Positions 3,332-33,560 of a stretch of 64,000 bases of DNA are shown in pieces (position 1 is the stretch's first letter; each line of letters starts with the position of its first letter). The notes beneath the pieces are model-generated. The model ran no database searches. It was not told the origin of the DNA and saw nothing but the letters and a program-made list of their open reading frames with translations. The stretch lies in the IMG/VR virus record IMGVR_UViG_2822368973_000001, positions 1-64,000 of that record. One strand, given 5' to 3'. The position numbers were made by a program, and so were the translations under genes. This DNA is from an uncultured virus (IMG/VR IMGVR_UViG_2822368973_000001). Lineage: Duplodnaviria > Heunggongvirae > Uroviricota > Caudoviricetes.

Positions 3332-3351
3332 GATTAAACCCTCGTTGATTA

Positions 3352-3399
3352 ACTTCCACTTTCGAGAATTATGTAAATAAGCTGTCCATATGGGCAGCT
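3352..3399 (+). other. dif-like site (6-bp spacer) fused to a terminator hairpin
   Basis: ACTTCCACTTT-CGAGAA-TTATGTAAATA then AGCTGTCCATATGGGCAGCT and a T-rich tract; repeated at 31958 and 63020. Confidence 0.6.
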
Positions 3400-3465
3400 T
3401 TATTTTATGTTCCCGCATAGCGTAGGTTATTTTGAAAAATGCTGGTGGTATCCCTCCCTATACAG

Positions 3466-3575
3466 CTACTCATAATTTTTGTACTGTGTAACTCAAAAGA
3501 GAAAGTTAAATAAAATTAATGATAGCAAGGGATTCAGTGATAGGATCAGTTACACACAATATAAGATAAGGGTAA
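3466..3575. other. Putative recombinase target (res-like) site, copy 1
   Basis: Two inverted 26-bp subsites, conserved at 32067-32176. Confidence 0.5.
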
Positions 3576-3608
3576 GTCTATGCTATTAACAAGAAAGTGG
3601 TGGTTGTG

Positions 3609-12280: not shown

Positions 12281-12513
12281 TAATATACAACAAAAATAAA
12301 AAACTTGGAAGAGTAGCTAAGAAGAGACAATAGATAGATAAATTAAGAAATCTTATTTCTAATAGATCTACAATACGACAGTAGTATTTTAGGTTTAGTG
12401 GGGAAATATCGACGAATATATACAATAGTATCTGTTTATGTTTTAAAAAATAAGTTAAAATATATATGGTAAATTATTCATTACTTTTCGTTTTTTACCG
12501 TAGGAGTGAGAAT

Positions 12514-13566: not shown

Positions 13567-13609
13567 AAAAATGTATTGTAAATGGATATAAATATAAAGG
13601 AGAGGGAAA

Positions 13610-14374
13610 ATGGCAGACAGAGATGAAAATGATATTAGGGATGGGAAATTTGAAGACACAGCTGAATTTTTCATAGCAGAAATGTTGTTTCATAGACACT
13701 CAGATTCATTTTTAGATAAATATAATCATATAAGAGAAGATATTGAACAAGCAATAAGTAAAAGAATGGGAGAATTAAAATTCAAGGTATCTGAACCGGA
13801 GAAGAAAAGGTTGGAAGCAGGATCTTTGAATAAAGCTTTAAAGTCAAGTTTGAGAAGTGTAGAGGGGCTAAAATTTGAAGTTGAATGTAAAGAGGGAGTA
13901 TTATATGACTCACCCAAAACAGGAGGTTTCGATTTTGCAATATTTGACAATCAATACAATGTAGTGAATTTTAGAAATTTTTGTTTTGGAAGAAGAGCAA
14001 TATATAAAGGTGAGGCTGAATGGAATAGACAATTACAAAATAGAGAAGAATGGAAAGATGTTGCTGAAACATTGGAATTACCTGAAATGAAGAGACGAGG
14101 TGAGGATTTATATCATAAAAAAGCAAAGCCTACAGTAGTTGGCGAAATTCAATTTGGGAACTGGGGTTTAGGCTATTATGACATAATTAAAGTAATTCAT
14201 TTAGAAGAATCTCTAGAGGTTGATCTTTTAATATATATTACAGCAACAGGTAATTTACAAACTTATTTAAGTAAAAGTATAGTAACCTTTAATAGAATGA
14301 AAAAAACCTTGGAGCAATATGGAGGAATTGTAAAGGTCCCAGTATGGCTTATAGGACTTGATATAAGGGAGTAA
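13610..14374 (+). CDS. BglII/BstYI-like restriction endonuclease fold protein
   Basis: GGFDF...VGEIQFGN (D...ExQ active-site pattern). Confidence 0.6.
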   Translation: MADRDENDIRDGKFEDTAEFFIAEMLFHRHSDSFLDKYNHIREDIEQAISKRMGELKFKVSEPEKKRLEAGSLNKALKSSLRSVEGLKFEVECKEGVLYDSPKTGGFDFAIFDNQYNVVNFRNFCFGRRAIYKGEAEWNRQLQNREEWKDVAETLELPEMKRRGEDLYHKKAKPTVVGEIQFGNWGLGYYDIIKVIHLEESLEVDLLIYITATGNLQTYLSKSIVTFNRMKKTLEQYGGIVKVPVWLIGLDIRE

Positions 14375-14482
14375 GTTGCTAAAATGTAAATGTTAAATAT
14401 GCTAAATAAGTTCATCGCTTTATAAAGGTTTTTATTTTATATAATGAGATTTGAAAAATATAAATATAGGTGGAGATGAAAC

Positions 14483-15952
14483 ATGACCAATTCATCAGTA
14501 AATATATTGACAACAACCATTACTGTTAATCCCTCAGATAATATATTTAAAGAACTGGGTAACAATACATATGATTTTAATGATTTGATTTCGGAGTTTA
14601 TTGATAATTCGATAGGAGCTATGGATTCAGAAAGAGTTCTTGAAGTTTATGTAGAAATTGGATTATCTAAAACAAGAGAAGAAGAATCATATTTTCTAAT
14701 TAGGGATAATGCTAAGGGAATTGTAAGGGAGTTTTTAGGGAAGGCACTTTCACCAGGTGGAACATCTGGTGGGAGAACTCTTAACGAGCATGGGTTAGGT
14801 ATGAAACAAGCTATTGCAGCATTAGGGGAATTAGAGCATCTAATTACAAAAACTAAAGAAGATAAACAGGCAGTTTGTATAAATAAGTTGAAATTTGGGG
14901 ATATAGAAGGTACTTTAATCGATGTACCTTGGAATCATGGAACTGAAATTAAAGTTAAAAGAATTAATAATATAGTACCAACTTCATCACAGAAATTTAC
15001 ACAATCAGTACAAGTTTATTTGGGAGCTAGATACAGAAGATTTTTACGCGAGAATAATAAGAAAATGCAATTAAATATTAAGTTATTAAACCTGGATGTA
15101 AACAATGGGACACCAAAGATTACAAATGAATGGGAAATCAAAGAAATTAACCCTGTTTATTTTCATCCCAATAGGAGAATAAATGAGCCAGTAACTAATA
15201 GAAAGATAATTAAGGGAAAAGGTTGGGAAGCAGCATTTACGTTTGGTTATGCTCCTACCGACAAACAATATGAAGATTTAGGACTAGAGCCTCCTAAAAA
15301 ATATGAGCCATACTATGTATCTATCAATAAACAAGGTTTTGATATTTTAAATAACGATAGAGTAATTAAATTTCATCAATTAAGTGAAATAGGAGTGGTA
15401 GAGACTAGACATAATCGATTTAATTATATTAGAGGAGAAATCGATTTAATTAGAGGATTTACTACAGCAATTACTAAGAATAATATAATAATGGATAATC
15501 ATTTTTCGGAACTTATACAGGAAGTTAAAGATATTTTAAATAAAAATGATTTCTTTGATAGAAAAAGTTATCCAGATGAAATACCCGAAGTGTTATTAAG
15601 AGATAGACTAGTACATCATTTTAAAACCAGTAAACTTTATGGGAAAAAAGATGTTAGAACAGAGTACCCAGTTCAAGCTTTAGGGGGATTTATAGATATT
15701 TTAGCAGATAATGAAGCATGGGAATTAAAAATAGGAGATGCTGATGGGTTAGCGGTATACCAATTATTTGCTTATATGGACATGGGCAAGATTGATAATG
15801 GCTATCTTGTAGCGAAATCGTTTAAGACAGGTGCAGAATCTGCAGCTAAATTTATAGAAGAAAACCATAATAAAAAAATTGATTTAATTTTAAGAGATGA
15901 ACTGCCAATAAATCTCCCTCCGACTGAAGAAGAATTGAAAAAATATTACTAG
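14483..15952 (+). CDS. GHKL (MORC/HSP90-like) ATPase with C-terminal PD-(D/E)xK-like domain
   Basis: ISEFIDNS, RDNAKGI, HGLGMK, HGTEI; C-terminal IDILADNEAWELK...YQLFAY. Confidence 0.75.
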   Translation: MTNSSVNILTTTITVNPSDNIFKELGNNTYDFNDLISEFIDNSIGAMDSERVLEVYVEIGLSKTREEESYFLIRDNAKGIVREFLGKALSPGGTSGGRTLNEHGLGMKQAIAALGELEHLITKTKEDKQAVCINKLKFGDIEGTLIDVPWNHGTEIKVKRINNIVPTSSQKFTQSVQVYLGARYRRFLRENNKKMQLNIKLLNLDVNNGTPKITNEWEIKEINPVYFHPNRRINEPVTNRKIIKGKGWEAAFTFGYAPTDKQYEDLGLEPPKKYEPYYVSINKQGFDILNNDRVIKFHQLSEIGVVETRHNRFNYIRGEIDLIRGFTTAITKNNIIMDNHFSELIQEVKDILNKNDFFDRKSYPDEIPEVLLRDRLVHHFKTSKLYGKKDVRTEYPVQALGGFIDILADNEAWELKIGDADGLAVYQLFAYMDMGKIDNGYLVAKSFKTGAESAAKFIEENHNKKIDLILRDELPINLPPTEEELKKYY

Positions 15953-19753: not shown

Positions 19754-20740
19754 ATGAATAATATGGCAGTTTATAGACCTGTTCAAGTTTCATATTGGCA
19801 AGATGCTTTCGTTTTAGATCTTACACCGGAGGAAAAATACTTCTACTTGTATTTGATGACTAATAGCAAAACTTCTCAGAGTGGTATCTATGAGCTTCCA
19901 TTACGAGTGATAGAAATGGATACAGGGTATAACCGTGAAACGGTTGAGAAGCTGCTAGAGCGTTTTGCTGATTACGGGAAAATTTATTACAACAAAAAGA
20001 CAAAAGAAATTATGTTGATTAATTGGCTTAAATTCAATGCTATTACAAATATGAATATTGAAAAATGTGTGTTAAAAGAAATCCAGAATATTAAGTGCGA
20101 GGATTTTTTAATTGATTTTTATGAGACATGTTTAGAGTTAGAGCAGCAGCAAGATTTTAAAATTCCTCGTATTAAGGAATACTTCCAAGCTCGTTTTGAG
20201 TGGCTTATAAGGGGCTTCGAAGACCCTATGAAGGAAAAAGAAGAAACAAAAACAGAAACAAAAGAAAAAGAAGAAACAAAAACAAAAGAAGAAGCAGCAA
20301 GCTGCTCAAGAGATAAAAAAGTTGCAGAAGAAAATCCAATAGCATTTTATGAGCAAAACTTTGGAGTTCTTAAACCATTTGTGGCTGAAGGGATTAATGC
20401 GTGGATTGAAGATTTGAATGCACAGCTTGTTATTAAAGCAATGAAAATAGCTCTAGAAAAGAATGCACCTAATATGTCTTATGTACAAGGTATTTTAAGA
20501 GATTGGCATGCTAAAGGGTATAAAAGCATTAATGATGTTGAAGCTGCACAAACTCAATTCCGTAAGAAATACCAATCTCGTGGCGGGAGAAGTAATGCTC
20601 GAAAAGAAATTGTTCCTGATTGGTTACATACACAAGATACGGAAACACATTCTCAGTCAGTAGAGCATAGTGAAATCGAATTAGAAGCTGAACGGAAACG
20701 TTTAGAACAAGTGTTATCTAAATATAAAAAAGAGGCTTAG
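19754..20740 (+). CDS. Phage replication initiator (DnaD-like C-terminal domain)
   Basis: LTPEEKYFYLYL N-terminus, SYVQGILRDW DnaD motif. Confidence 0.88.
   Translation: MNNMAVYRPVQVSYWQDAFVLDLTPEEKYFYLYLMTNSKTSQSGIYELPLRVIEMDTGYNRETVEKLLERFADYGKIYYNKKTKEIMLINWLKFNAITNMNIEKCVLKEIQNIKCEDFLIDFYETCLELEQQQDFKIPRIKEYFQARFEWLIRGFEDPMKEKEETKTETKEKEETKTKEEAASCSRDKKVAEENPIAFYEQNFGVLKPFVAEGINAWIEDLNAQLVIKAMKIALEKNAPNMSYVQGILRDWHAKGYKSINDVEAAQTQFRKKYQSRGGRSNARKEIVPDWLHTQDTETHSQSVEHSEIELEAERKRLEQVLSKYKKEA
20232..20296. repeat. A-rich direct repeats inside the initiator gene (probable origin iterons)
   Basis: AAAAAGAAGAAACAAAAACA repeated; encodes KEETKTE repeats. Confidence 0.55.
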
Positions 20741-21441: not shown

Positions 21442-21867
21442 TTATAGGGACTTTATAGCGAAATGTATATCTAAACAGAATTTTCCGCTTGCACTGCCAG
21501 GTTCTAAGAGACGAATAGTAACTGATTGTGTATCTTCAATTGTTTTGGAAATTGAATTTCCAGGAGGGACTATGAAAAGGATGGACTTACTCATGCTTTG
21601 TTGTACGCTAACTTCAATTAGTGAACCTTGTAAACTGTTAAAGACTGTGACAGTAGCAGTAACAGGTTGTTCTATTCTCTTTTCCCAAACTTCTAGAAAG
21701 GTAGGGTTGTCATTAAGTAGAAAGTTACCACAAATTTCATTACATACAAGTTTTTGTTTTTCTTTTGGTATTGGTAATGAATCACAGGTTGGTATTGGAA
21801 AAGCACAGGGTATTGGAAATAGATATTTAAAATCCAAAGAATTTTTTTTCATAATATAATGCCTCAT
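21442..21867 (-). CDS. DUF3992/Ena-like endospore appendage protein with exosporium-leader-like N-terminus
   Basis: FPIPCAFPIP leader; VCNEICGN, IVPPGNSISKT, GKFC motifs. Confidence 0.65.
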   Translation of the reverse strand: MRHYIMKKNSLDFKYLFPIPCAFPIPTCDSLPIPKEKQKLVCNEICGNFLLNDNPTFLEVWEKRIEQPVTATVTVFNSLQGSLIEVSVQQSMSKSILFIVPPGNSISKTIEDTQSVTIRLLEPGSASGKFCLDIHFAIKSL

Positions 21868-21945: not shown

Positions 21946-22287
21946 CTATGCTACTTGACGTGCAGCTTCAACACAAACTCTACCACTAACAGGTTGACCA
22001 GCGGTGCCAGAAAAAGCAACCAATGTTCCTATGTTTGACACAAAAACAGTTTGGCTATTACCTGGAGTTATTGGGCCAATAATATTTGTACCATTGTTCG
22101 CTAAAAAGGCAGTAATTGCACCACTTGCAGGGTTATTAGTAAGAGTGACATAGCCGGAAAGAACTGGACCTCCAGTATTGTTAAATACTGTAGCTCCACC
22201 AACTACATCACCTCCTGTTGTCGTGAAAGAATTGCATGTAGAAATAGAGACAAACTGAGGGTCTGTACAACAACACATATACAACAT
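21946..22287 (-). CDS. DUF3992/Ena-like endospore appendage subunit
   Basis: Cys-rich N-terminus (MCCC), ITPGNSQTVFV, SGRVC. Confidence 0.6.
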   Translation of the reverse strand: MLYMCCCTDPQFVSISTCNSFTTTGGDVVGGATVFNNTGGPVLSGYVTLTNNPASGAITAFLANNGTNIIGPITPGNSQTVFVSNIGTLVAFSGTAGQPVSGRVCVEAARQVA

Positions 22288-23136: not shown

Positions 23137-23448
23137 TTAAAAAGGTTTATTAATCATTTGTTCTCTAACCAAAACAAAAACTGTGCCTGCAACAACACAG
23201 GTTGCATAGATTTTGCCACTTATGCCGCCGAAAAATTCAAGTCCGAAAGGTAGTAAAAAAGTAGCAATTCCTACTATATAAGCAAATATGCCGAGTAATT
23301 TAGCTAGTTTATTTTTATCACCAATAAAAGTAGCATCTTGGTATCCAGCAATAAGAAATAATTGTTTTTTAATATGAATCAGATAACCCATTATTACAAT
23401 GATTAGACTAACAAGTGTGCAAACTACAAATCCACTCATTATATTCAC
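23137..23448 (-). CDS. Small membrane protein (DUF3784-like)
   Basis: Three hydrophobic segments, LIAGY motif. Confidence 0.65.
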   Translation of the reverse strand: MNIMSGFVVCTLVSLIIVIMGYLIHIKKQLFLIAGYQDATFIGDKNKLAKLLGIFAYIVGIATFLLPFGLEFFGGISGKIYATCVVAGTVFVLVREQMINKPF

Positions 23449-23691
23449 CTACCTTATTTAAATTTTACCATATTTAGGTTGTTTTTTATAGGGTTAACAA
23501 AGGAGCTCATCTTGTTATAAGGAGGAAGGTAGAATCAAAATGACGGAAATAGAGGAATTGAAAGTGAGCATTTTTTTATAAAATTCTTATTTTAAAGCTA
23601 AAGAACGCCTTGTAGAGCGCTCCTTATGCCTAATTATAAATGCTTATGTTCGTTCTTAGATTGATTTCTTGCTTGAAAGAATAAAATGCTC

Positions 23692-23784
23692 TTAAACAAA
23701 GTTTAGATAGACAATACAGCCAATAATTACAATATAATACATCGCACAAAAGAAGATTAAAATGTATTTTAATGTCTTGTTCAA
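23692..23784 (-). CDS. 30-aa hydrophobic peptide (not in ORF track)
   Basis: TTG start after AGGACGGT; MNKTLKYILIFFCAMYYIVIIGCIVYLNFV; upstream GTATA-16-CATACCA. Confidence 0.45.
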   Translation of the reverse strand: MNKTLKYILIFFCAMYYIVIIGCIVYLNFV

Positions 23785-23900
23785 ATTAGTACCGTCCTAA
23801 AAGAGAATTATTTGGATTTTAATATGGTATGTAAAAAAAGGTGCATTTATACAAGGGAAGGGTAGCTAGCAAAAGTAAAACAAAATCTTTATTTAAACAT

Positions 23901-23990
23901 AAAAAGAGCGCCCGGGAAAGCACTCTTTGACCAAGGCTCATATCGAAAAGTGGTAACAATATATCCTATGTGTATTTTTAACGTATGTGC
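23901..23990 (-). ncRNA. Candidate sRNA unit, sigmaK-type promoter
   Basis: GCACA-15-CATAGGAT, short core, AAAGAGTGC/GCGCTCTTTTT terminator. Confidence 0.55.
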
Positions 23991-24025
23991 AAATTCTAAA
24001 CAAAATCTTTATTTCATAACAAGCG

Positions 24026-24127
24026 AAAAAGAGCACACATATAAGCGTGCTCAGAGACAAGAAAGGTAGATTTCCATGAGTGGAGAGTCTCCATACAATA
24101 ACGTATACTTGTCAGGTATAAATGCGA
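24026..24127 (-). ncRNA. Candidate sRNA unit, sigmaK-type promoter
   Basis: TCGCA-15-TATACGTT, core antisense to GAAAGGTAGATTTCCATG, GAGCAC terminator. Confidence 0.55.
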
Positions 24128-24146
24128 CAAGTTTTTATTCCATGAG

Positions 24147-24253
24147 AAAAGAGCACTTACTTACGGTGCTCTTTAGGGAAAAAGTGAAATGTTGAAAAGT
24201 AGATTAGGGTTTCTTGCTTCGAAATAATATATGACCATTTCATCGTAATGTGA
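24147..24253 (-). ncRNA. Candidate sRNA unit, sigmaK-type promoter
   Basis: TCACA-15-CATATATT, core antisense to AGGGAAAAAGTGAAATG, GAGCAC terminator. Confidence 0.62.
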
Positions 24254-24332
24254 CAATGAATCGCTAATGCTAACTACTTGTTGAAAAAAGAATCCCCTCT
24301 AGATTATTGAATGCCAGAGCTTCAAGAAATAA

Positions 24333-25649
24333 TTAATTTAACTTTTCAATTACAATCGAAGCATTTATATTTGTTTGTGTTCCACCTGCTAAAGTTTGCA
24401 AAGTAACTGCAGCAGCGGAAGTATGATTATTAAGGGTAATAATATCACCTGCGGCTAAAGAGAGAATTGTTTGCCCATTGTTTTGCTGAGTTCCTGCACC
24501 TGATCCATAAACTGCGCTGGTAACCGGAGCACCATTTAAAAAAAGTGTGAATTGATTAGGCTCAACTCCTGATACAGAAAAAGAAATTTTATAATCTCCT
24601 GCATTAAGAACCATTAATTGAGAAGTTCCCAGTGTATGAGTAAAACCAGATGTCATTCTACCATGTGAATTAAAAAGAATAGGTGCTTCTAAGGCAACAA
24701 CTTGAGCTGCTGTATTGAAAACATAAGCATAATGAGATAACCCAGATACTGTAAGACCGGTAGGCCCAGTAGGTCCGGTAGCTCCAGCGGTTCCTGGTAA
24801 TCCAGTAGGCCCAGGAATGCCTTGGATGCCTTGGATACCTTGAAGCCCAGTTGGGCCAGTCGGGCCGATAGGTCCAATAAGTCCCGGATCACCTTGAATA
24901 CCTTGGATACCCTGAATTCCAGTCGCCCCAGTTATTCCAGTGGGTCCAATAGGACCAATAGGCCCCGGATTACCTTGAATCCCCTGAATCCCTTGACTTC
25001 CTTGAGGTCCAGTGGGGCCAGGAATGCCTTGGATCCCTTGGATACCTTGAAGTCCGGTTGGTCCTGGTGACCCAGAAGGTCCAGTGGGGCCAGTCACTCC
25101 GGTTGGTCCTGGTGGTCCCCCAGAAGGTCCGGTCGGGCCCGTTGGTCCTGGCGGTCCCCCGGAAGGGCCGGTAGGTCCAACAGCTCCAGAAGGTCCAGTT
25201 GGACCTACAGAACCAGGAATGCCAGGAATCCCTTGAGGGCCGGTCGGCCCAGGAATCCCTTGAATCCCTTGAATGCCAGGAATCCCTTGAATGCCAGGAA
25301 TCCCTTGAATTCCAGTGACCCCTGTTATTCCAGTGGGTCCAATAGGACCTTGAATGCCAGGAATGCCTTGGATCCCTTGGATACCTTGAATTCCAGAAGG
25401 TCCAGTTGGACCAATAGATCCAGAAATCCCAGGAATCCCTTGAGGTCCAGAAATACCTTGAGGCCCAGTAGGTCCCAGGCTACCTTGAATTCCAGTAGGC
25501 CCGGTAGGTCCCCGAGGTCCACCTGAAGGTCCGGTAGCTCCAGTAGGTCCCGAAGGTCCAGTAGCACCGGTTAATCCAGTAGACCCGATTTGAGGTAAAG
25601 GAAAGGCACATGGAAAGGGTATGTGACAATTCTTTTTAAATTTACTCAT
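24333..25649 (-). CDS. Collagen-like exosporium protein with BclA-type C-terminal domain
   Basis: IPFPCAFPLP leader, long GXX (GPT/GIQ) tract, C-terminal NASIVIEKL. Confidence 0.88.
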   Translation of the reverse strand: MSKFKKNCHIPFPCAFPLPQIGSTGLTGATGPSGPTGATGPSGGPRGPTGPTGIQGSLGPTGPQGISGPQGIPGISGSIGPTGPSGIQGIQGIQGIPGIQGPIGPTGITGVTGIQGIPGIQGIPGIQGIQGIPGPTGPQGIPGIPGSVGPTGPSGAVGPTGPSGGPPGPTGPTGPSGGPPGPTGVTGPTGPSGSPGPTGLQGIQGIQGIPGPTGPQGSQGIQGIQGNPGPIGPIGPTGITGATGIQGIQGIQGDPGLIGPIGPTGPTGLQGIQGIQGIPGPTGLPGTAGATGPTGPTGLTVSGLSHYAYVFNTAAQVVALEAPILFNSHGRMTSGFTHTLGTSQLMVLNAGDYKISFSVSGVEPNQFTLFLNGAPVTSAVYGSGAGTQQNNGQTILSLAAGDIITLNNHTSAAAVTLQTLAGGTQTNINASIVIEKLN

Positions 25650-26072
25650 TTTTACACCTCCCTTATAAATTAACTAACAATTTATATTTATACTTTAACA
25701 ACTTATGAGTAAACAGACACACGGGTGTAAGGAAAAACCCTACAATAATTACATAAAAGGTTTTAAGAGCAAGCCTTTATTTCACATTCCATACCAAAAA
25801 GAGCACTATATAAGTGCTCTTCGGATCAAAGCTCTTAGTGTAAAAGAGTACGTGATACCAAATGTAATTTTTTCATGGCGTGAAGTATTTGAACAAAAAG
25901 CTATTTGATACTGAAATTATCCACTTTAAAAAGAGCACTATAAAAAGTGCTCTTTCAAAAAATATTGTTATTTACTTAATTTTAATAATAACTAACAAAA
26001 AGAAATTGGAGTTTGCTTACTGTTATATAAGTTGCGAAAAATTTATTACGGCTGGGGTTACTGTAAATATTC

Positions 26073-26558
26073 TTAGTGAAATTGTTGCTGACCTTGTTGG
26101 TTACCCATTTGTTGACCTTGTTGGCCACCCATTTGCTGACCTTGTTGGTTACCCATTTGTTGACCTTGTTGACCACCCATTTGCTGGCTCACTTGATCAA
26201 CCTGTGTTTGGGCCTGTGCAATAGCTTGATTAATTTGACTTAATGTTTGATTAGATTGTAGGTACTGTAATCCTTGATTTAATGTTTGAATAGCTTGTTG
26301 GATAGTTTGCTGTAATTGTTGATCCGCTTGTTGCATTTGTTGTTGAGATTGATGACTAAATTGTTGAAGTTGTTGCATTAGTTGATTAGCTTGTTGTAAT
26401 CCTTGTTGTTGACCTTGTTGTTGACTTTGAGTTGTTTGAGATAAAGATTGTTGTAACTGTTGAATTTGGTTTTTAAGGCTAGTTAATTCTTGTGAAACTT
26501 CTAAATCAGCAGCTTTACGTGCTACTGCTTCAACTTTTTTCTCAGTACGTTTGTCCAT
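26073..26558 (-). CDS. Gln-rich low-complexity protein, probably forespore-expressed
   Basis: MG(G/N)QQGQQ 7-aa repeats; RBS TAGGAG; GTATC-17-CATTATA upstream; GAGCAC terminator at about 25928-25956. Confidence 0.75.
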   Translation of the reverse strand: MDKRTEKKVEAVARKAADLEVSQELTSLKNQIQQLQQSLSQTTQSQQQGQQQGLQQANQLMQQLQQFSHQSQQQMQQADQQLQQTIQQAIQTLNQGLQYLQSNQTLSQINQAIAQAQTQVDQVSQQMGGQQGQQMGNQQGQQMGGQQGQQMGNQQGQQQFH

Positions 26559-26687
26559 TTTAACTCCTACTTATGTAACCACATCATTGTGTGGAACATT
26601 TTTATAATGTACAAATTCTTATTTTTGATACTAAAAAATAAAATTTAAAGACTAGGGAGGAGAGGGATATGAATAGTACTTTAATCG

Positions 26688-26802
26688 AAAATAGGACAAG
26701 CAATTTTGCTTGTCCTAGAAGGAGGAAATTTCAAAACACCAAATTGACTCGTATTGGTAAACAGGTTCCTGCATAGTATGATTCAAATTAAGAAAGTTAT
26801 AC
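26688..26802 (-). ncRNA. Candidate sRNA unit, sigmaG-type promoter
   Basis: GTATA-17-CATACTA; UUUCCUCCUUCU next to the AGGACAAGC hairpin terminator. Confidence 0.65.
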
Positions 26803-26952
26803 AAAAATAGCAGGCAAAGAAACTTTGCCTGCTTGTGGGTTGAATGAGTTAGCCAATTGTGATGAAACGCCTTCCCATCCTTTTACAGGAAGAGTGAAGC
26901 CACTAGTTCGAATGGCTTAGAAGTATCGTGTGTAGTTTAGTTGAAAAATATG
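26803..26952 (-). ncRNA. Candidate sRNA unit, sigmaE-type promoter
   Basis: CATATT-14-CACACGAT; AGCAGGCAAAG hairpin plus U-rich tail. Confidence 0.5.
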
Positions 26953-27091
26953 TAAAAGAAGATAAAGAATTTATTTTATAGCAAAAAAGAGCATTATTTG
27001 TAAATGCTATTGAAAGACGAGCATCAATAATTACAAGAGATTGGCTCAATAGAACTTAGGATTTTCTTATTTCAAGGTAAAAATTAAATGT

Positions 27092-27217
27092 AAAATAGGA
27101 GAACAGATACATAGACTGTTCTCCTAAGGAGCGGGAATACTGAATTTGAAGTGCATCTCAAATGACAATCAATCAAGCGTTTCATAAATAGTATGTACTT
27201 ATGTTGAGATTTAATAC
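27092..27217 (-). ncRNA. Candidate sRNA unit, sigmaG-type promoter
   Basis: GTATT-17-CATACTA; CCGCUCCUU next to the AGGAGAACAG hairpin. Confidence 0.62.
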
Positions 27218-27340
27218 AACAAAACAGCTAGCGTAGCTAACTGTTTTATCTTAGGAAGAATTCAAGAAAATCTGAGATTCATTATGGAATAGCTATTACC
27301 AACTTATTTATAGTATGTGGATGTTTTTGTAATATTATGT
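27218..27340 (-). ncRNA. Candidate sRNA unit, sigmaG-type promoter
   Basis: ACATA-18-CATACTA; CAGTTAGC/GCTAGCTG terminator. Confidence 0.55.
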
Positions 27341-27389
27341 ATGTGTTGAGAAGTTAATAAAAATTTCATTTTGTAGAAAAGAGGGAGCT

Positions 27390-27483
27390 AAAAAAGAGCA
27401 CTATATATAAGTGCTCTAGTCGAGAGTGAGTATAAATTCCTATCATTCTATATTAGTATATGCACTGTATTATGTAGTTGCTA
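27390..27483 (-). ncRNA. Candidate sRNA unit, mother-cell-type -10
   Basis: CATATACT -10 with weak -35; GAGCAC terminator with U6. Confidence 0.5.
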
Positions 27484-27551
27484 CTAAAGTTAATGTCAGT
27501 TTTTAAAATTAGAGGTTTCTTTTAATGAAACCTCTAAAAAGACAACTAAAG

Positions 27552-27821
27552 TTACGTTATAGTAAATTCAATTGCAATAGGAGTACCCCCATCTAGGACG
27601 GCTCCTCCTACAATAGTAGCAGCTGTAATAGTATCACCAGTTTGAATAACGCCATTAATATAAAGCGTAAAAAAAGCATAAGAAGCAGGGAATGTTGTTA
27701 CAGCACCAGTGTCATCAGTGAAGTCTGTGTTAGCAAAAGTTAAATCCGCTCCAGCGGCAGTTCCTGTTGCTGCTGTACTTACAAATCGTCTTCCAGCTAT
27801 AAATGGCTTAACGATAGGCAT
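27552..27821 (-). CDS. DUF4183-like small spore-associated protein
   Basis: DFTDDTG...FFTLYINGVIQ motif; RBS GAGGTG; terminator at about 27510-27540. Confidence 0.65.
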   Translation of the reverse strand: MPIVKPFIAGRRFVSTAATGTAAGADLTFANTDFTDDTGAVTTFPASYAFFTLYINGVIQTGDTITAATIVGGAVLDGGTPIAIEFTIT

Positions 27822-27959
27822 TTATGTTCACCTCTTTTTAAGAATTAACTCGGACAAGTTTTTAGAAAGCTTGGTCCTGTATTTTATACTATGTTGTATT
27901 TCAATGAAAAGAAACGGCTTGTAAACTAGTATACAAACGCTATTTTAGTAAGGAACATT

Positions 27960-28060
27960 TAAAAGGACCCGATTAGGGGGACGGGTCCTTTTAATGAAAC
28001 AATAACCTTTACAGAATTACCAATACATTACCATAAAAGGTAATTAGTTTCCATGATGTG
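27960..28060 (-). ncRNA. Possible sRNA unit, promoter type uncertain
   Basis: AAAAGGACCCG/CGGGTCCTTTT terminator; weak sigmaA-like TGGAAA-17-TAATGT. Confidence 0.35.
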
Positions 28061-28080
28061 GATATTGAGAAATCTTTTTA

Positions 28081-28117
28081 TAGCTACTTCAGCTAGCTAC
28101 TTCAGCTAGCTACTTCA
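28081..28117. repeat. 13-bp tandem repeat TAGCTACTTCAGC, about 3 copies
   Basis: Read directly. Confidence 0.85.
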
Positions 28118-28125
28118 TTCAGCAC

Positions 28126-28250
28126 AACAAAGCAGCTAGCTGAAATAGCTAACTGCTCTATTGTACAATTTTAGAAGTTTCACTGGATACAGATATAAGT
28201 TGTAACGAAAAGTTACAACTATAGTATAAACAGAATTCGAAAAAATATGC
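28126..28250 (-). ncRNA. Candidate sRNA unit, sigmaG-type promoter
   Basis: GCATA-17-TATACTA; 5' hairpin AGTTGTAAC/GTTACAACT; AGCAGTTAGC terminator. Confidence 0.62.
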
Positions 28251-28285
28251 AGGAAAGAAAACTAAATTAAAACTTCATTCAGCAC

Positions 28286-28406
28286 AACAAAGCAATCAGC
28301 CTAATGAGCTAACTGCTTGTTGTACAAAAGAAAATTAGGCCCTACAAGTTAAGATGTGTAACTTAGAGTTACAGTTATAGTGTTAGCAGGACTGGAAATG
28401 TTATAC
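28286..28406 (-). ncRNA. Candidate sRNA unit, paralog of 28126-28250
   Basis: GTATA-17-AACACTA; TGTAAC/GTTACA hairpin; same ACTTCATTCAGCACAACAAAGCA flank. Confidence 0.6.
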
Positions 28407-28452
28407 GGGGATTAATACAACAAAAATTTCATTTTGTAGAAATAAGAAAATT

Positions 28453-28550
28453 AAAAAAGAGCACCATGCATAAGTGCTCTTTAAGATAGGAGGTAACACT
28501 TTGAGCTGAGGCTAGGTTAGAAGTATATGGTGTAAAAAAAGAAATAAGAA
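28453..28550 (-). ncRNA. Candidate sRNA unit, sigmaE/K-type promoter
   Basis: TCTTATT-13-CATATACT; core contains UUACCUCCUAU; GAGCAC terminator. Confidence 0.62.
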
Positions 28551-28575
28551 CAAAATTTTATTATTAGTTCAATAT

Positions 28576-28705
28576 AAAAAAGCAGTTAGCAAAAAGCTAA
28601 CTGCTAAGCCCTCAGAGAAAGAGGAAAAGAACATTACAGAGGTCACTGTGAATTCAAGCTGTATCAGCCCATTTATAGTATTGGACAGAATTTAGAATTT
28701 TATTC
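28576..28705 (-). ncRNA. Candidate sRNA unit, sigmaG-type promoter
   Basis: GAATA-18-AATACTA; CUUUUCCUCUUUC; perfect AGCAGTTAGC hairpin with U tract. Confidence 0.62.
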
Positions 28706-28714
28706 GAATAAACT

Positions 28715-28834
28715 AAAAAGAGCAGCTAGCAAAAGCTAACTGCTCACCTCTCGACCAAGAGAGCTAGAGTGGGAAGAATTTAAAATAACCTTTTAAATTC
28801 TTGCATAGTATCGGAAAAAATTAGAATTTTATTC
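28715..28834 (-). ncRNA. Candidate sRNA unit, sigmaG-type promoter
   Basis: GAATA-17-GATACTA; 5' hairpin AAGAATTTAAAA/TTTTAAATTCTT; GAGCAGTTAGC terminator. Confidence 0.6.
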
Positions 28835-28983
28835 ACGTAAAACTTAAATTAGGAAGTTCAATAATTGAATGTATCTATAGCATAGACAAGGTTTAAAAAT
28901 TTATTCAAGGGAAATAAGGAATGGGTACTTATTGAAAAAAGGCAGTCAAGGAGTACTTCAAGAAGCAAGAGTTGGAACGCAAT

Positions 28984-29076
28984 AAAAAGCAGTTAGCAAA
29001 AGCTAACTGCTCGAATCATGGAATGTGTTTAAGAAATGGGTTGTCTACAGTATTGACGTAATGTTGAGTTTTATTC
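28984..29076 (-). ncRNA. Candidate sRNA unit, sigmaG-type promoter
   Basis: GAATA-17-AATACTG; AGCAGTTAGC terminator. Confidence 0.6.
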
Positions 29077-29101
29077 AGGCGTAGAAGGTCTTTTTCAAAA
29101 G

Positions 29102-29192
29102 AAAAACGCTAGGATTTCTCCTAGCAAGTCACAGGGTATTCGTGCATAGACGAATTTACTTATATTATAACGCAATAACTAACTGTTCAAGA
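29102..29192 (-). ncRNA. Candidate sRNA unit, sigmaA-type promoter
   Basis: TATAAT at 29164-29169 (minus strand); GCTAGGA/TCCTAGC hairpin with U tract. Confidence 0.45.
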
Positions 29193-29298
29193 TGTTAATG
29201 TTATTAATTTTTTTACGAGATAATTACATTTGCAAATTGAGAGTAAAGTTAGATTTGAACAAAATAATCCTTTGAAATGAATATCGTCCGGCTAGAAA

Positions 29299-29366
29299 AC
29301 TAGAGGACACCAATTCATTAAAGCAGCCATTAAAGCTGTTTTAGGAATAGGTGTCCTTTTTATTTT
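29299..29366 (+). terminator. Long hairpin terminator upstream of arpU
   Basis: AGGACACC...GGTGTCCT then TTTTATTTT; analogous hairpin at about 598-660 in the remnant. Confidence 0.6.
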
Positions 29367-29574
29367 GAAAAGGGAGATGGGGAAATATGAAGACACTAAA
29401 AGACCCATTACGCGAGTGGAAAAAGCAATCCAAGAAAGGAAAGAAGAAAAACAAGAAAAAACAAAAAGAGAAATTAAGTACTCGTGAAATTGAGCATTTA
29501 ATGGGGATGCATAGACCTTGTTATGAGCGTAGACGTGGAGCATTAAGACAAAAGTAATTTAAAAATAAAAAGGA

Positions 29575-30048
29575 GTGGTCTTACATGNNCCAAAAATTGA
29601 TAGAACAGCAACACAGGAGGAATTAGAAGGTGTGTTGGAAAGCGTACGTATACATAGACAATTTGGGGTGATGCGTAAAGAAATGAAAGTCACTCCTTCT
29701 TATGAAATACGTGAACACGGTCCTACACATACAGTTGGAAAACCATTAGAAGATGTTGCTATAGCAAATATTCAACAAAGCAAGCGAGAAGAGCGGCTTG
29801 AGAAAATGTCATTACGTATTGATCAGTTTCTAAATCGATTAGGGAACGGACGTGCAGGAAGCATTCAAAGAGATATTATTTATAAACGTTATTTAGAAGA
29901 AGAGGACGTATGTGATTACATGGTTTATAACGAAATAGGGATGTCAGAGCGTACTTATCGACGTTGGAAGTCTAAAGCATTTTATAAGCTCGCTTTTGCA
30001 CTTGGATTAGAAGTTTACGAGGCAGAAGAGACTGGAGGTAATGAATAA
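29575..30048 (+). CDS. arpU: ArpU-family late transcriptional regulator (start uncertain, Ns at 29588-29589)
   Basis: IYKRYL...VYNEIGMSERTYRRWKSKAFYKLAFAL. Confidence 0.85.
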   Translation: MVLHXPKIDRTATQEELEGVLESVRIHRQFGVMRKEMKVTPSYEIREHGPTHTVGKPLEDVAIANIQQSKREERLEKMSLRIDQFLNRLGNGRAGSIQRDIIYKRYLEEEDVCDYMVYNEIGMSERTYRRWKSKAFYKLAFALGLEVYEAEETGGNE

Positions 30049-30590
30049 TGAATTTTGTTCAGCCAATACGTGATCCAGAAGAAATACAGCAGCTGAAAGA
30101 GTATTTTAAGGAAAAGAGCTTACGTAATTACATCCTCTTCATTATGGGCATTAATACAGGCCTTAGAATCTCAGATATTTTGAAATTAAAGGTAGGAGAT
30201 GTCAAAAGCAGTCATATATCTATGCGGGAAAAGAAAACAGGGAAACAGAAACGAATACAAATTACTGCAGCGTTGAAAAGAGAACTTAAGTGGTTCATTG
30301 AAGAGCGAGAAGATAATGAGTACCTATTACAAAGTAGACAAGGTAAGAATCGCCCGATTGGTCGTAGCATGGCATATAAGATATTAAGCGGAGCAGCGGC
30401 AGAGTTTGGATTAGATGAAATAGGAACACATACACTGAGAAAGACGTACGGGTATCATATGTACATGCAAACAAAAAACATAGCATTACTCATGGAGATA
30501 TTCAATCACTCCTCAGAGAAGGTCACGTTACGTTATATAGGTGTAAATCAAGATGCAATGGATAAGGCAATGACAAGGTTTAAAATCTAA
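30048..30590 (+). CDS. Small tyrosine recombinase (catalytic domain only)
   Basis: NTGLRISDIL, GTHTLRKTYGY, FNHSS...TLRYIG. Confidence 0.92.
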   Translation: MNFVQPIRDPEEIQQLKEYFKEKSLRNYILFIMGINTGLRISDILKLKVGDVKSSHISMREKKTGKQKRIQITAALKRELKWFIEEREDNEYLLQSRQGKNRPIGRSMAYKILSGAAAEFGLDEIGTHTLRKTYGYHMYMQTKNIALLMEIFNHSSEKVTLRYIGVNQDAMDKAMTRFKI

Positions 30591-30700: not shown

Positions 30701-31840
30701 TTAAGCACCAGGAATATTTGGAACTAAATTCTGAACGATTTTGATAAGATTATTTGTGATATCTTGTTGTTGAGATGTAAGTGTATCGGATCCATCAGTA
30801 AATACTGTAACGCAGATTGGACAAGCTTCGATATGAATCCCCAATAGATTAATAGCTAGACCACCTGGTATATCCACAGTAAGAATCGATGTGGAACCTT
30901 CAGGAGGAGTACAAGTCTGACAGTTAGTTTCAAGAGCCATAGAGTCACCTTCTTTCTTGATAGAGTTATTATATAAATATGTTCGAAGATACTCAAAGGA
31001 CAAAGGTATTTGTACAAGCTTCGAAAATTGTGTTAGTGACTCAGATTTACCCCCAATGAACTCAAATCCTTCAGAAGATGTTACAATTATTGGATTAGTA
31101 TCGGTATCGTGTACAATGAAAATTCCACCAAGCTTGGTGAATTCATCAATGATTCCTCCTGGTTGCATTAATTCCATGACGTCCAGATCAGTAATATTCC
31201 CTTGAATTCCGATCCAAACACACCAGTAATCCGCTGCCAGTTGTTTACCTGTAGTGTATTGATCTTTGATAATTGATGGAGATATCTGCACAACAGTATA
31301 TTGAGTGAGTGACCAAAGTTGTTTGGCGAAGTCATAGGAAGCAACATCATTCTCAAGCAGTAAGACGCCCTTACCAAAAATGAAAGTGCTACTAGGACAA
31401 TTCATACTGGTTGTCTCAGTAGTAGAAACTGTTTTATTTATATCCAACGTATAATCATTGGATCCCTTTAAATTTGTCATTTGAACCACTGGTTCAGTAA
31501 CGGTGAGACAACTATCCGAACTCATGATTCCGTCTAATCTTGCAAAAATTTGAGCTTCCCCAGTATTAATTGCTGTAGTCAAACCTTTTGTTTCTTCCTC
31601 ATTTGAAACTATTGCACTTGAAAGATTGCTAGAGTACCACTCTACAAGTTTTGTAATGTCCCTAGTTGATTTGTCAGAATACGTACCTGTCGCAGTAAAC
31701 TGATGGCTCAAACTTGAACAAAGAGATAAAGTCTTAGGATCTATCTTGATGGAAACCAAGACAGATATTCTTTTTTCGTAACATTCTTTCTCTTTTGGGA
31801 TAAACAGAATAGGAGGGTTAAATTGATTGGAAGTGTTCAT
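30701..31840 (-). CDS. Ig-like (Big_2) domain protein, possibly fused to a downstream small ORF
   Basis: FTATGTYSD..RDIT..VEWYSSN Ig motif; internal RBS and ATG at 30940. Confidence 0.65.
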   Translation of the reverse strand: MNTSNQFNPPILFIPKEKECYEKRISVLVSIKIDPKTLSLCSSLSHQFTATGTYSDKSTRDITKLVEWYSSNLSSAIVSNEEETKGLTTAINTGEAQIFARLDGIMSSDSCLTVTEPVVQMTNLKGSNDYTLDINKTVSTTETTSMNCPSSTFIFGKGVLLLENDVASYDFAKQLWSLTQYTVVQISPSIIKDQYTTGKQLAADYWCVWIGIQGNITDLDVMELMQPGGIIDEFTKLGGIFIVHDTDTNPIIVTSSEGFEFIGGKSESLTQFSKLVQIPLSFEYLRTYLYNNSIKKEGDSMALETNCQTCTPPEGSTSILTVDIPGGLAINLLGIHIEACPICVTVFTDGSDTLTSQQQDITNNLIKIVQNLVPNIPGA

Positions 31841-31957
31841 TTGTGTTAGCCTCACTTTCTTTATCAATACATTTAATCAATATATGTTACATACAGAACT
31901 CGGTTTGGACTTGACCGCTCCCCTGATTATTTAGTTCATTTTAATCTGAAACTATTC

Positions 31958-32392: not shown

Positions 32393-32698
32393 TTAACGTG
32401 TTTCTGGATCTTTGTCTTTTTTTCTAAGACCAAATAATCCTAGTAGTCCCAATAAACCAAGCCAAGTCCAATTATTATTTTTATCACGATTATCATTTAA
32501 ATCATTTGTCGTATTTACATTTCGAGTTCTCACATCATTATTAACTCTATTCATGTTATAGTCATTAACTCGAGTTGTAGTATTATTATTGTTAACTCTA
32601 TTCGTATTATATCCATCGTATTCAGCATGGACGCTTGTACCAAAAACCGTAATAGTTAGTAATAGGGCACCTAAAATAGATGAAAGTTTTTTCTTCAT
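32393..32698 (-). CDS. WGxxGxxG-CTERM-like secreted/membrane protein
   Basis: Signal peptide, Asn-rich repeats, WTWLGLLGLLGLFGLRKK. Confidence 0.8.
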   Translation of the reverse strand: MKKKLSSILGALLLTITVFGTSVHAEYDGYNTNRVNNNNTTTRVNDYNMNRVNNDVRTRNVNTTNDLNDNRDKNNNWTWLGLLGLLGLFGLRKKDKDPETR

Positions 32699-33044
32699 GG
32701 TTTTCCCTCCTTTCGTATTTAGTAATGTCTCCAGTTCCTTTAGACAATATTCGGTTGAAAATATATAAAACCATTTGAGTTCAAATTATGATAAATATCT
32801 TTAATTTTTATTATTAAAAGTACTTAATAATAATGGATTAAGTTAATTGAAATGTATTTATTCTTTATAAGCATAAATTTTTGGTAACGGTACATTCTAT
32901 GAGAGGTAATTACTATATTTGGGTAAGGTGTTCCATATGAGTTATAAGAACTTATTTTCTTTAATCAAGAACATGATTGGGAAAATTTTTTCTATAGTAA
33001 GTATTGTTGCTAAAAGTCTAATTTCTTTAAGGAGGAATATTTTT

Positions 33045-33560
33045 ATGGGTATTTTAAGTGGAAATCCACAAAATGAACCAATGCACTACGGAGAAGTCTT
33101 TGGGATTTGGAGTTATCTTGCAGCGGCACAAGGCGCGATTGCTGGATATCAAGTTCTTATTAACCATACAGGGGACGAGGATTTAAAGAAATTTTTAGAG
33201 AACCTTGTAGAGAATGATATCCAATCAGAAGTTGAAGAATTAAAAAATATCTTGAAATTGAATGGTGTTGCATTACCACCAGCACCTCCAGAAAGACCAG
33301 TCGCATCTATTGAAACGATTCCTCCTGGTGCTCGTATTAATGATGCAGAAATTGCAGCTAAAGTTTCTATGGATCTTGCTGCTGGCTTAGTAGCATGTAG
33401 TCAAGCTATGGGACAATCTCTTCGAGAAGATGTTGGAATGATGTTTGGTCAATTTCATATGAAAAAAGCACAAGCTGGAGCTATATTACTTCGTCTGAAT
33501 AAGAAAAAAGGTTGGATTATTCCGCCTCCATTACATGTTCTACAATCCGATCAAGCATAG
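33045..33560 (+). CDS. DUF3231-family protein
   Basis: MGILSGNPQNEPMHYGEVFG; RBS AAGGAGG; sigmaG-like GCATA-17-CATTCTA at 32871-32899. Confidence 0.8.
   Translation: MGILSGNPQNEPMHYGEVFGIWSYLAAAQGAIAGYQVLINHTGDEDLKKFLENLVENDIQSEVEELKNILKLNGVALPPAPPERPVASIETIPPGARINDAEIAAKVSMDLAAGLVACSQAMGQSLREDVGMMFGQFHMKKAQAGAILLRLNKKKGWIIPPPLHVLQSDQA

Follow-up and report, generated by a model that had tools for sequence, protein, structure and literature searches.

Introduction

Phage morons are autonomous promoter-gene-terminator modules inserted between phage genes, and enterobacterial prophages carry regulatory small RNAs (sRNAs) such as DicF and the anti-sRNAs of Shiga-toxin phages. Here we describe an array of short cassettes on the minus strand of an uncultured Caudoviricetes virus (IMG/VR record IMGVR_UViG_2822368973_000001), of which positions 1 to 64,000 were analyzed (the window, 64,000 nucleotides (nt) in all). 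The window is a Bacillus cereus-group prophage in integrated form, and the array occupies positions 23901 to 29192. Like morons, the cassettes have their own promoter motif and terminator, lie on the strand opposite to the phage genes, occupy an accessory hotspot and are patchily distributed among relatives. Unlike morons, they enclose a non-coding core of 25-70 nt rather than a protein gene, and they are arranged in tandem, in two classes whose ends are fixed. They resemble the enterobacterial prophage sRNAs in that small RNAs from a prophage are predicted to act on gene expression, but the hosts are different, there is no sequence relation, and the enterobacterial RNAs are single genes without developmental sigma control. 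We regard it as moderately probable that the array comprises about 12 independent small non-coding RNA genes ("RNA morons") of a B. cereus-group temperate phage, under promoters of sporulation type.

The sRNAs described for Bacillus sporulation include SurA, SurC (sigmaK), the polC-ylxS RNAs (sigmaG and sigmaK), the yocG-yocH RNA (sigmaE), and CsfG and Bvs196 (sigmaF/sigmaG) (PMC9147052). In the accessible text of this source, few sporulation-specific sRNAs are known and most are without a target (PMC9147052). The cassettes share with them a predicted set of features (small size, non-coding character, compartment-specific sporulation promoters and intrinsic terminators), and for those sRNAs, as here, most targets and phenotypes are either not known or subtle. 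In contrast, the described sRNAs are single, chromosomal and widely conserved, whereas this prophage has many tandem cassettes with constant ends and exchangeable cores. A second point of comparison is RoxS/RsaE, sRNAs of Firmicutes with C-rich or pyrimidine-rich seeds (excerpts of PMC5419742, PMC10433868 and PMC4409812). As in RoxS/RsaE, C/U-rich stretches that are unpaired or exposed in loops are predicted to be able to pair with Shine-Dalgarno (SD) regions. However, there is no sequence or Rfam relationship, and the promoters of the cassettes are of sporulation type. In the openly accessible literature on phage and prophage sRNAs in Bacillus sporulation we found no such array, in line with an earlier first-pass annotation of this DNA, for which such an array was not known to have been described; subscription journals lay outside this scope and absence from print is unproven.

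Cassette anatomy and the two classes

The anatomy of the cassettes is non-random, strand-specific and widely conserved. We drew on 80 related IMG/VR prophage loci, gathered via a neighboring integrase-family protein, in which 517 distinct minus-strand terminators were identified. A sigmaG/F-type promoter motif precedes 121 of these terminators (0 on the opposite strand; shuffle mean 2.1, maximum 5) and 132 are preceded by a sigmaK-type motif (opposite strand, 10; shuffles, mean of 18.2 and maximum of 29). The frequency of a sigmaA-type motif (20, versus a shuffle mean of 11.4) was judged to be no enrichment. The -10 element mostly ends 30-79 nt ahead of the hairpin. A model-free hexamer count found ATACTA, the most frequent of the top-enriched hexamers, in 93 of 408 non-redundant segments versus a background of 3.3%, and GAATAA in 24% of segments versus 6%. 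Alignment anchored on ATACTA places G-a-A-T-A-A at -23 to -18 with a sharp spacing peak, and T at +6 in 74 of 92 cases.

Two classes of cassette were recognized. In both, a promoter and a terminator (a hairpin with U tract) that are constant would flank a core that is short and exchangeable. Class 1 combines the motif tGAATAA-N16-cATACTAT, predicted to be a forespore-type promoter (closest to the B. subtilis sigmaG/sigmaF consensus), with a GCAGTTAGC..GCTAGCTGC hairpin. Class 2 combines AC-N16/17-CATAnnnT, a putative mother-cell-type promoter (closest to sigmaK, in some cases sigmaE), with a GAGCAC..GTGCTC hairpin. Among 224 distinct units, the sigmaG/F-type promoter is found with the GCAGTTAGC hairpin in 101, with the GAGCAC hairpin in none and with another hairpin in 15; the corresponding numbers for the sigmaK-type promoter are 0, 76 and 32. 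The coupling of promoter class to hairpin class is complete and may reflect common descent or a compartment-specific partner; a Fisher P value for it is not a true probability because the loci are kin.

The median length of the 224 distinct RNAs predicted from these units is 74 nt (range 51-119). Pyrimidine runs of at least 9 nt occur in 88 of the 224 cores, versus 21.8 in shuffles. The 3' tail of 16S rRNA in a B. thuringiensis genome is GATCACCTCCTTTCTA. Of 106 class 1 cores, 38 contain a 6-mer of this tail (18.5 in shuffles) and 14 a 7-mer (4.2 in shuffles); of 102 class 2 cores, 28 contain a 6-mer (10.9 in shuffles) and 19 a 7-mer (2.5 in shuffles). Single-linkage clustering of the cores at 65% identity over-merged them, thus the resulting counts of at least 9 and at least 15 core families are lower bounds.

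We predict that RNAs of about 55-120 nt are made from the intergenic DNA of the minus-strand moron block. Their unpaired, pyrimidine-rich core stretches, which often match a segment of the 16S rRNA 3' tail, would pair with the purine-rich ribosome-binding regions of mRNAs, and such pairing could damp translation in the sporulating cell. The cassettes would be gained, lost and reshuffled via recombination at their constant ends.

Conservation and exchange of units among related prophages

Unit families are named here after the positions of their members in the window. Family 28984 is represented by pieces in 63 loci. In its 34 distinct full-length versions, conservation is 0.90-0.96 for the promoter and 0.98 for the hairpin but 0.65 for the core; there are many alternative cores and their length differences are not multiples of three. 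The paralogous pair 28126/28286 (family A) is present in about 20 loci, family 28453 is full length in 15 loci (19 with pieces; 15 distinct versions), and family 24026 (family C) is found in 18 loci (15 distinct versions). In every aligned family the promoter elements and the terminator are conserved and the middle is variable. The core of family 28453 contains an unpaired 20-nt stretch with conservation of 0.98, whereas its 5' part varies (0.84). In the hairpins of family A, 98.1% of cells in the pair table form pairs; changes on both sides affect 22 cells, compared with 5.7 in shuffles (0 of 500 shuffles were as high). By our own count there are also about 50 G-U cells, which would be A-C mismatches on the opposite strand. 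The compensatory changes and G-U pairs together point to selection on the minus-strand RNA of family A.

Clustering of 606 terminator-anchored units gave 185 clusters, 102 of them singletons. Cluster order varies among loci; 28984 usually adjoins the gene for the ArpU-like late activator, and 28453 and 28286 are often paired. Joints in reads from related strains show unit loss: one (28264>28419) skips exactly one unit, and another (27389>28454) links two related GAGCAC units via a 62-nt repeat, D6. The first-pass annotation had described the array as modular and expandable and had proposed a comparison of prophages for unit gain and loss. The cassettes recur in differing orders and numbers among the 80 related prophages, which fits this description.

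Units are also present in isolated phages. A blastn comparison matched parts of the array to 42 records, 40 of Bacillus phages and two of Staphylococcus phage SpaA1, and the matched DNA is mostly without annotation. In the Wbeta-like phage AP631, a 1.2-kb stretch without an annotated gene (2607-3808) contains units of family A and of the 23901 type. An RNA polymerase sigma subunit is the annotation of a phage gene that lies a few genes upstream of this stretch. Phage 0105phi7-2 has one complete unit, which fills a 113-nt gap between two co-directional plus-strand genes.

These data bear on whether the units could be inert relics, either promoters and terminators of deleted moron genes or hitch-hiking recombination scars without a functional product, which we consider unlikely. 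The location in an accessory hotspot fits such an origin, as do the real minus-strand protein morons, which need promoters and terminators of this kind. So do the high proportion of singleton clusters, the presence of degenerate copies (unit 26983 and the mutated promoter of unit 24026) and the finding that nine units of the window have homologues only in 2-4 near-identical loci. However, a promoter of the 28984 type is followed by a terminator within 30-87 nt in 59 of 66 copies, the remaining 7 copies hold two units, and in none of the 66 does the span from promoter to terminator enclose a protein gene. The units are also far more common than the protein morons: the latter are present in just 2-9 of the 80 loci, the units in most. 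Also against this origin are compensatory changes that maintain hairpin pairing, a near-invariant unpaired stretch beside a variable 5' neighbor, strict coupling of promoter and hairpin classes, and a complete unit inserted between two genes of an isolated phage.

The core alignments also address the coding capacity of the units. The units might encode tiny peptides, on the transcribed strand or on the strand of the phage genes, where the reverse complement of the pyrimidine tract is a strong SD sequence. On the plus strand, AGGAGGT lies 7 nt before a start codon in 8 of the 15 versions of family 28453; 7 of these give a frame of 12-15 amino acids (MSWMFRLKVYDVEKE and variants), and the eighth runs off the extracted stretch. 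An SD-led ATG likewise occurs at one place in 13 of the 15 versions of family 24026. However, 7 of the 15 versions of family 28453, including the window copy, lack an SD-led frame (by eye, the frame in the window stops after two codons), and the frames of family 24026 diverge after 3-4 codons through indels of 1-2 nt. On the transcribed strand, an SD-led open reading frame (ORF) of at least 8 amino acids was identified in only 2 of the 224 predicted RNAs (shuffle mean 3.8), which bears out the first-pass observation that the cores lack an ORF led by a ribosome-binding site. With core lengths that also differ by other than multiples of three, we find a peptide-coding role very improbable. A type I toxin-antitoxin system was considered and rejected, given that there is no conserved small ORF on either strand.

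Genomic position of the array

In the related loci, terminators on the minus strand are densest 1-3.5 kb upstream of the ArpU/integrase-like gene pair, where they reach 1.66 per 500 nt per locus, and plus-strand terminators in that zone number 0.01-0.09 per 500 nt. Across the 6.5 kb upstream of the pair, the 64 loci with at least 7 kb of sequence have a median of 8 minus-strand terminators (range 1-20) and a median of 0 on the plus strand. A plus-strand transcript would therefore cross the units, with almost no terminator in its way.

The class 1 hairpin pattern was found at 128 or more genome loci, nearly all of them in B. cereus-group species; a few matches, in unrelated metagenome-assembled genomes, are palindromic and due to chance. 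Among the matches listed, a sigmaG/F-type motif lies upstream of 75 of 135 T-tailed class 1 hairpin copies. For 49 class 1 genome loci we compared the two longest neighboring ORFs (87 ORFs) with PHROGs. ArpU-type activators (phrog_248) were identified at 8 loci, Holliday-junction resolvases at 4 and transposases at 4, and 9 gave no hit. From these neighbors we conclude that the units occur mostly, although not exclusively, in this prophage context.

The fixed position of the array across the 80 loci and the near absence of plus-strand terminators raise the possibility that the units act in cis. The RNAs would then be antisense to the plus-strand transcript that runs from the early and replication genes to ArpU, and would block read-through, such that the prophage stays silent or the lytic cycle pauses during sporulation. 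The single unit between co-directional genes of phage 0105phi7-2 fits such a role, as does a minority signal on the opposite strand over 27388-27847 in stranded reads. We nevertheless deem this explanation unlikely, in that a barrier to read-through would need neither variable, pyrimidine-rich, structured cores nor two classes of constant scaffold, and class 1 units are also found away from ArpU-type genes (phrog_248 is among the two longest neighbors at only 8 of the 49 loci).

Units of the window

A terminator scan of the 21-31 kb region of the window found 18 terminator-like sites, versus 6.2 +/- 3.0 in shuffles, and 16 of the 18 are on the minus strand. A second scan located minus-strand terminators at 29106, 28988, 28719, 28581, 28458, 28291, 28131, 27395, 27224, 27095, 26807, 26691, 25800, 24030, 23905 and 23602. 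The hairpins belong to the two families described above (GCAGTTAGC..GCTAGCTGC and GAGCAC..GTGCTC). On folding, 9 of 12 RNAs predicted in the window have z-scores of -3.2 or lower, each with a hairpin at the 3' end and with its pyrimidine stretches unpaired. A mini-array resembling CRISPR was rejected: the hairpin copies are irregularly spaced, 118-910 nt apart, and every copy comes with a promoter motif and a U tract of its own. A search of Rfam, proposed as a check with the first-pass annotation, gave no match at the gathering score anywhere in the window, the CsfG model included; at E values up to 5, the region 23400-29400 gave chance-level hits only (microRNA models, tsr26, RsaA and ncr1241), far under the cut-offs.

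The first-pass annotation had read the span 23901..29192 as ORF-poor DNA tiled by about 16 minus-strand units of 90-150 bp. The promoter motif, core, hairpin and U tract of that description are all present, but the units measure 60-130 bp and only about 12 are well formed and independent; several of the others are probably the 3' ends of protein-gene mRNAs. Nor is the span ORF-poor throughout, since three minus-strand protein genes (BclA-like, Q-rich and DUF4183) lie within it and take 2,073 of its 5,292 bases.

Promoter assignments were revised in a similar way. The strict sigmaG-like pattern G[ACT]ATA-N17/18-NATACTA has four matches on both strands of the 70,682-base contig, all on the minus strand (28834, 28705, 28250 and 26802). 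Thus, only four of the eight units to which sigmaG-like promoters had been ascribed match exactly, although all eight do so within one mismatch, and in the one-mismatch scan their -10 elements end 35-70 nt ahead of the hairpin. CACA-N15-CATAnnnT, the sigmaK-like pattern proposed for units 23901, 24026 and 24147, matches on the minus strand at 24252 and 23989 and once more on the plus strand at 62905; units 24147 and 23901 are therefore retained and unit 24026 fails. Of the three units said to have sigmaE/K-like promoters (26803, 27390 and 28453), only 28453 matches a sigmaE-type pattern, with one mismatch. A sigma-70 scan found no excess of sites (29, versus 32.9 in shuffles).

For comparison with related loci we defined 21 units in the window, which are described here from the ArpU-proximal end; all are on the minus strand. 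Unit 29102 (29095..29190) has a hairpin at 29126-29107 followed by a T tract, found in two terminator scans, and full-length homologues in 3 of 82 loci. Its proposed sigmaA-like promoter (by eye, TTGAAC at 29190-29185 and TATAAT at 29169-29164) has a spacer of 15 nt and is absent from the sigma-70 scan list; it is not upheld. Unit 28984 (28980..29076), of class 1, comprises GAATA-N17-AATACTG (29076-29048), a 35-nt core, a GCAGTTAGC hairpin (29012-28987) and a U tract, and its predicted RNA has a fold z-score of -6.4. Next to it is an orphan sigmaG/F-type promoter motif (28878..28906, GAATA-N17-TATGCTA), as the first-pass annotation had noted. This motif matches a looser form of the sigmaG-like pattern and lacks a terminator between itself and the next unit. 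That unit, 28715 (28713..28834; class 1), has an exact GAATA-N17-GATACTA, a core with two hairpins and a GCAGTTAGC terminator (28745-28720); its z-score is -4.3, and pieces of it occur in 64 loci, full length in 6. Unit 28576 (28574..28705; class 1) has an exact GAATA-N18-AATACTA, an 18-nt pyrimidine tract (28631) and a GCAGTTAGC terminator (28605-28581); its fold (z-score -4.2) places UUUCUCU in a hairpin loop.

Unit 28453 (28449..28548), of class 2, has the sigmaE/K-like motif TCTTATT..CATATACT, the invariant unpaired stretch GUUACCUCCUAUCUU and a GAGCAC hairpin (28482-28456). The unit shares ACCUCCU with the 16S 3' tail. The two family A units follow, both of class 1. Unit 28286 (28283..28406) has GTATA-N18-AACACTA, with one mismatch, a 5' hairpin (TGTAAC..GTTACA) and a long terminal hairpin at 28322-28292; its z-score is -3.7, and it is the unit missing from one related strain (read joint 28264>28419). 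Its paralogue 28126 (28123..28250; 85% identity, z-score -4.5) has an exact GCATA-N17-TATACTA, a 5' hairpin and a long terminal hairpin. Directly after unit 28126, at 28077-28119, a 13-nt sequence (GAAGTAGCTAGCT on the minus strand) is repeated three times in tandem and is related to the neighboring hairpin arm. This repeat is part of unit 27960 (27960..28122), which has a hairpin near 27993-27965, a promoter that is only putative and full-length homologues in 4 loci.

Unit 27218 (27218..27340; class 1) has ACATA-N18-CATACTA, with one mismatch, a AACAGTTAGC hairpin (27245-27225) and a z-score of -3.2, and has homologues in only 2 near-identical loci. The adjacent unit 27092 (27089..27217) has GTATT-N17-CATACTA, also with one mismatch, and a hairpin of its own (27126-27096; z-score -3.9), with homologues in 2 loci only. 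Of the two units reported as degenerate, 26983 (26983..27085) is so, with a weak GAGCAC-related hairpin and no promoter motif found, and 25796 is better explained as a terminator of the Q-rich gene (see below). Unit 26803 (26803..26975) combines a strong terminator (26833-26809) with a promoter that is only putative, and homologues were found in 2 loci only. Unit 26688 (26686..26802; z-score -4.4), immediately upstream of the Q-rich gene, has an exact GTATA-N17-CATACTA, an unpaired UUUCCUCCUUCU and a terminator at 26717-26692.

Three further units of class 2 follow. Unit 24147 (24143..24252) has an exact CACA-N15-CATATATT and a GAGCAC hairpin (24172-24150), with a z-score of -1.9. Unit 24026 (24024..24140; z-score -4.7), the family C member, contains CUACCUUUCUUGU as well as two hairpins, a 5' one and one of the GAGCAC type (24052-24031). 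Its window copy departs from the family consensus in both promoter elements, with CGC and TATACGTTA instead of CAC-N17-CATATGTTA. Unit 23901 (23897..23989) has an exact CACA-N15-CATAGGAT and a hairpin at 23928-23903 (z-score -2.0). A unit-like element outside the range first annotated (23590..23760) has a hairpin at 23623-23603 and no promoter motif that we could find; pieces of it are present in 13 loci.

Some hairpins are closely associated with protein genes. Unit 27390 (27389..27520) has a GAGCAC hairpin (27417-27395) and U tract, and no promoter motif was found. In a stranded run from a related strain (X17), minus-sense reads cover the DUF4183 gene and continue at similar depth to 27392, and 15 reads stop about 9 nt beyond this position, just past the U tract. 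The reads fit termination at the 27390 hairpin, which suggests that this element is not a unit in its own right but probably the 3' end of the mRNA of the DUF4183 gene. Two GAGCAC-type hairpins at 25952-25928 and 25820-25800 (25796..25960) follow the Q-rich gene without a promoter motif and are likely its terminators, and the hairpin of unit 24147 lies about 160 nt past the stop codon of the BclA-like gene. It could be argued from these cases that most hairpins are terminators or 3' untranslated fragments of neighboring minus-strand protein genes, with promoter-like motifs that are internal or fortuitous. We give this explanation little credence. It accounts for at most 4-5 of the 18 elements first annotated (16 candidate units and 2 degenerate ones), the 7 units in 28123-29190 are without a protein gene, and most of the 80 loci have units but none of these protein genes.

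Predicted sigma factors, transcription and targets

The sequences establish the anatomy of the units, their conservation, strand, lack of coding character and modular spread; transcription, sigma dependence, timing and targets are inferred. Several observations weigh against the proposal that the units are sporulation-type RNA genes. The related loci are close kin, and consequently the counts given above are not independent events. The nine window units whose homologues are confined to near-identical loci are without comparative support. In family 28984 the promoter spacer is conserved (0.93) like the hexamers. [quoted passage not shown] Words resembling the 16S tail are only two- to seven-fold enriched and occur in about one third of the cores.

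The promoter motifs are open to the same caution. The B. subtilis consensus sequences are GHATR-N17/18-CATXHTA for sigmaG and AC-N16/17-CATAnnnT(A) for sigmaK, and that of sigmaE is similar to that of sigmaG. By spacing, the class 1 motif fits sigmaG best, and the class 2 motif fits the sigmaK consensus, both judged by the B. subtilis sequences. Since the sigmaG and sigmaE consensus sequences are similar, the compartment assignment is uncertain. The first base of the -10 element (position -1) is C in only 54 of 92 aligned cases. None of the upstream regions of seven small acid-soluble spore protein (SASP) genes in a B. thuringiensis genome has the motif or an ATACTA -10 element; 3 of the 7 fit a looser GnATn-N17/18-CAnnnTA by eye, and the start-codon calls may be off. 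Because of the similar sigmaE consensus, the variable -10 base and the SASP mismatch, the labels "forespore-type" and "mother-cell-type" are used with reserve.

The available RNA reads are small shares of RNA libraries from related strains that are 88-99% identical. In run X12, which is apparently unstranded, depth is low over 28124-28675 (about 2-17); there is no silent control and DNA carry-over is possible. No pile-ups of read starts or ends at units were reported in the related-strain reads. Contigs from two RNA libraries (X1 and X2) cover parts of the array and break at repeats.

A search for the exact complement of the invariant 28453 stretch returned only the self-match in the window and, in one host genome, the prophage copy. 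A 16-mer of this stretch has 29 matches with up to 3 mismatches in that host genome search, versus 43 for a reversed control.

That a lysogen would "tune" host expression during sporulation, as first suggested for this array, is pure conjecture. A bolder version would have the array act as a recombination-shuffled, "programmable" sRNA library of B. cereus-group temperate phages, in which an exchangeable pyrimidine-rich seed is set between a forespore or mother-cell promoter and the constant hairpin scaffold that goes with it. The library would rewrite translation in both cells of the sporangium, or silence the phage's own or rival phage genes in the future spore, with the coupling of promoter and scaffold reflecting compartment-specific partner proteins. 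Such a library would be a natural analogue of synthetic seed-plus-scaffold sRNAs; we consider it doubtful.

Other genes of the prophage

Host-like genes extend to about 10 kb of the window and are followed by an integrase gene (10568-11704) and a repressor/Cro region. A DnaD-like replication gene (19754-20740) precedes the minus-strand block, which is placed between the replication genes and the ArpU-like late activator gene (29575-30048). A small integrase-family gene (30048-30590) comes next, and genes for terminase, portal, tail, holin and amidase proteins continue on the plus strand through about 63 kb.

The minus-strand block includes real protein genes. A family scan identified a pair of Enas-family (endospore appendage) genes (21442-21867 and 21946-22287) and a DUF3784 gene (23137-23448). 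Between units 24147 and 26688 are the gene for a BclA-like collagen protein of 438 amino acids (24333-25649; Pfam Collagen, E 2e-39, and BclA_C, E 6e-11), the C-terminal part of which is present in 9 of the 80 related loci, and the Q-rich ORF of 161 amino acids (26073-26558), with no family above the Pfam cut-off and homologues in 2 of the 80. The DUF4183 gene (27552-27821; 89 amino acids, PF13799, E 8e-8) is the one covered by stranded reads from a related strain. The four morons of spore-surface type (two Enas, BclA-like and DUF4183) have homologues in 2-9 of the 80 related prophages, always on the minus strand. In the accessible literature on endospore appendages and prophages, no paper on prophage-borne spore-surface genes was found. 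The units adjoin such genes (Ena-family and BclA-like), an arrangement that suggests a sporulation-phase program of the prophage made up of the entire minus-strand block.

Beside the integrase gene and a gene for an IrrE-like peptidase, the plus-strand region 12466-15952 encodes a protein with an HNH endonuclease domain, a BglII-like endonuclease and an HATPase_c_3 protein. This trio looks like a defense or restriction island inside the prophage. Accessory genes are also found beyond the integrase-like gene, at 30701-31867 (minus strand) and 32393-33560; the products are a 388-amino-acid Big_2 protein, an Asn-rich protein of 101 amino acids whose N terminus is signal-like, and a DUF3231 protein (plus strand). 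The window contains short N runs at 7346, 16232, 17265 and 29588 (8 bases in total). The last of these falls within the start of the ArpU-like ORF and thus makes this protein unusable as a whole.

Implications for phage and spore biology

It is an unsettled matter how temperate phages handle the sporulation of their hosts, and sporulation is poorly charted at the level of post-transcriptional control. If expressed as predicted, the cassettes would constitute a large, phage-borne and fast-diversifying set of developmental sRNAs. With natural seed variants by the hundreds, carried on two fixed scaffolds, they would also provide comparative data for target finding. Expression of this kind would represent a new, spore-directed kind of lysogenic conversion.

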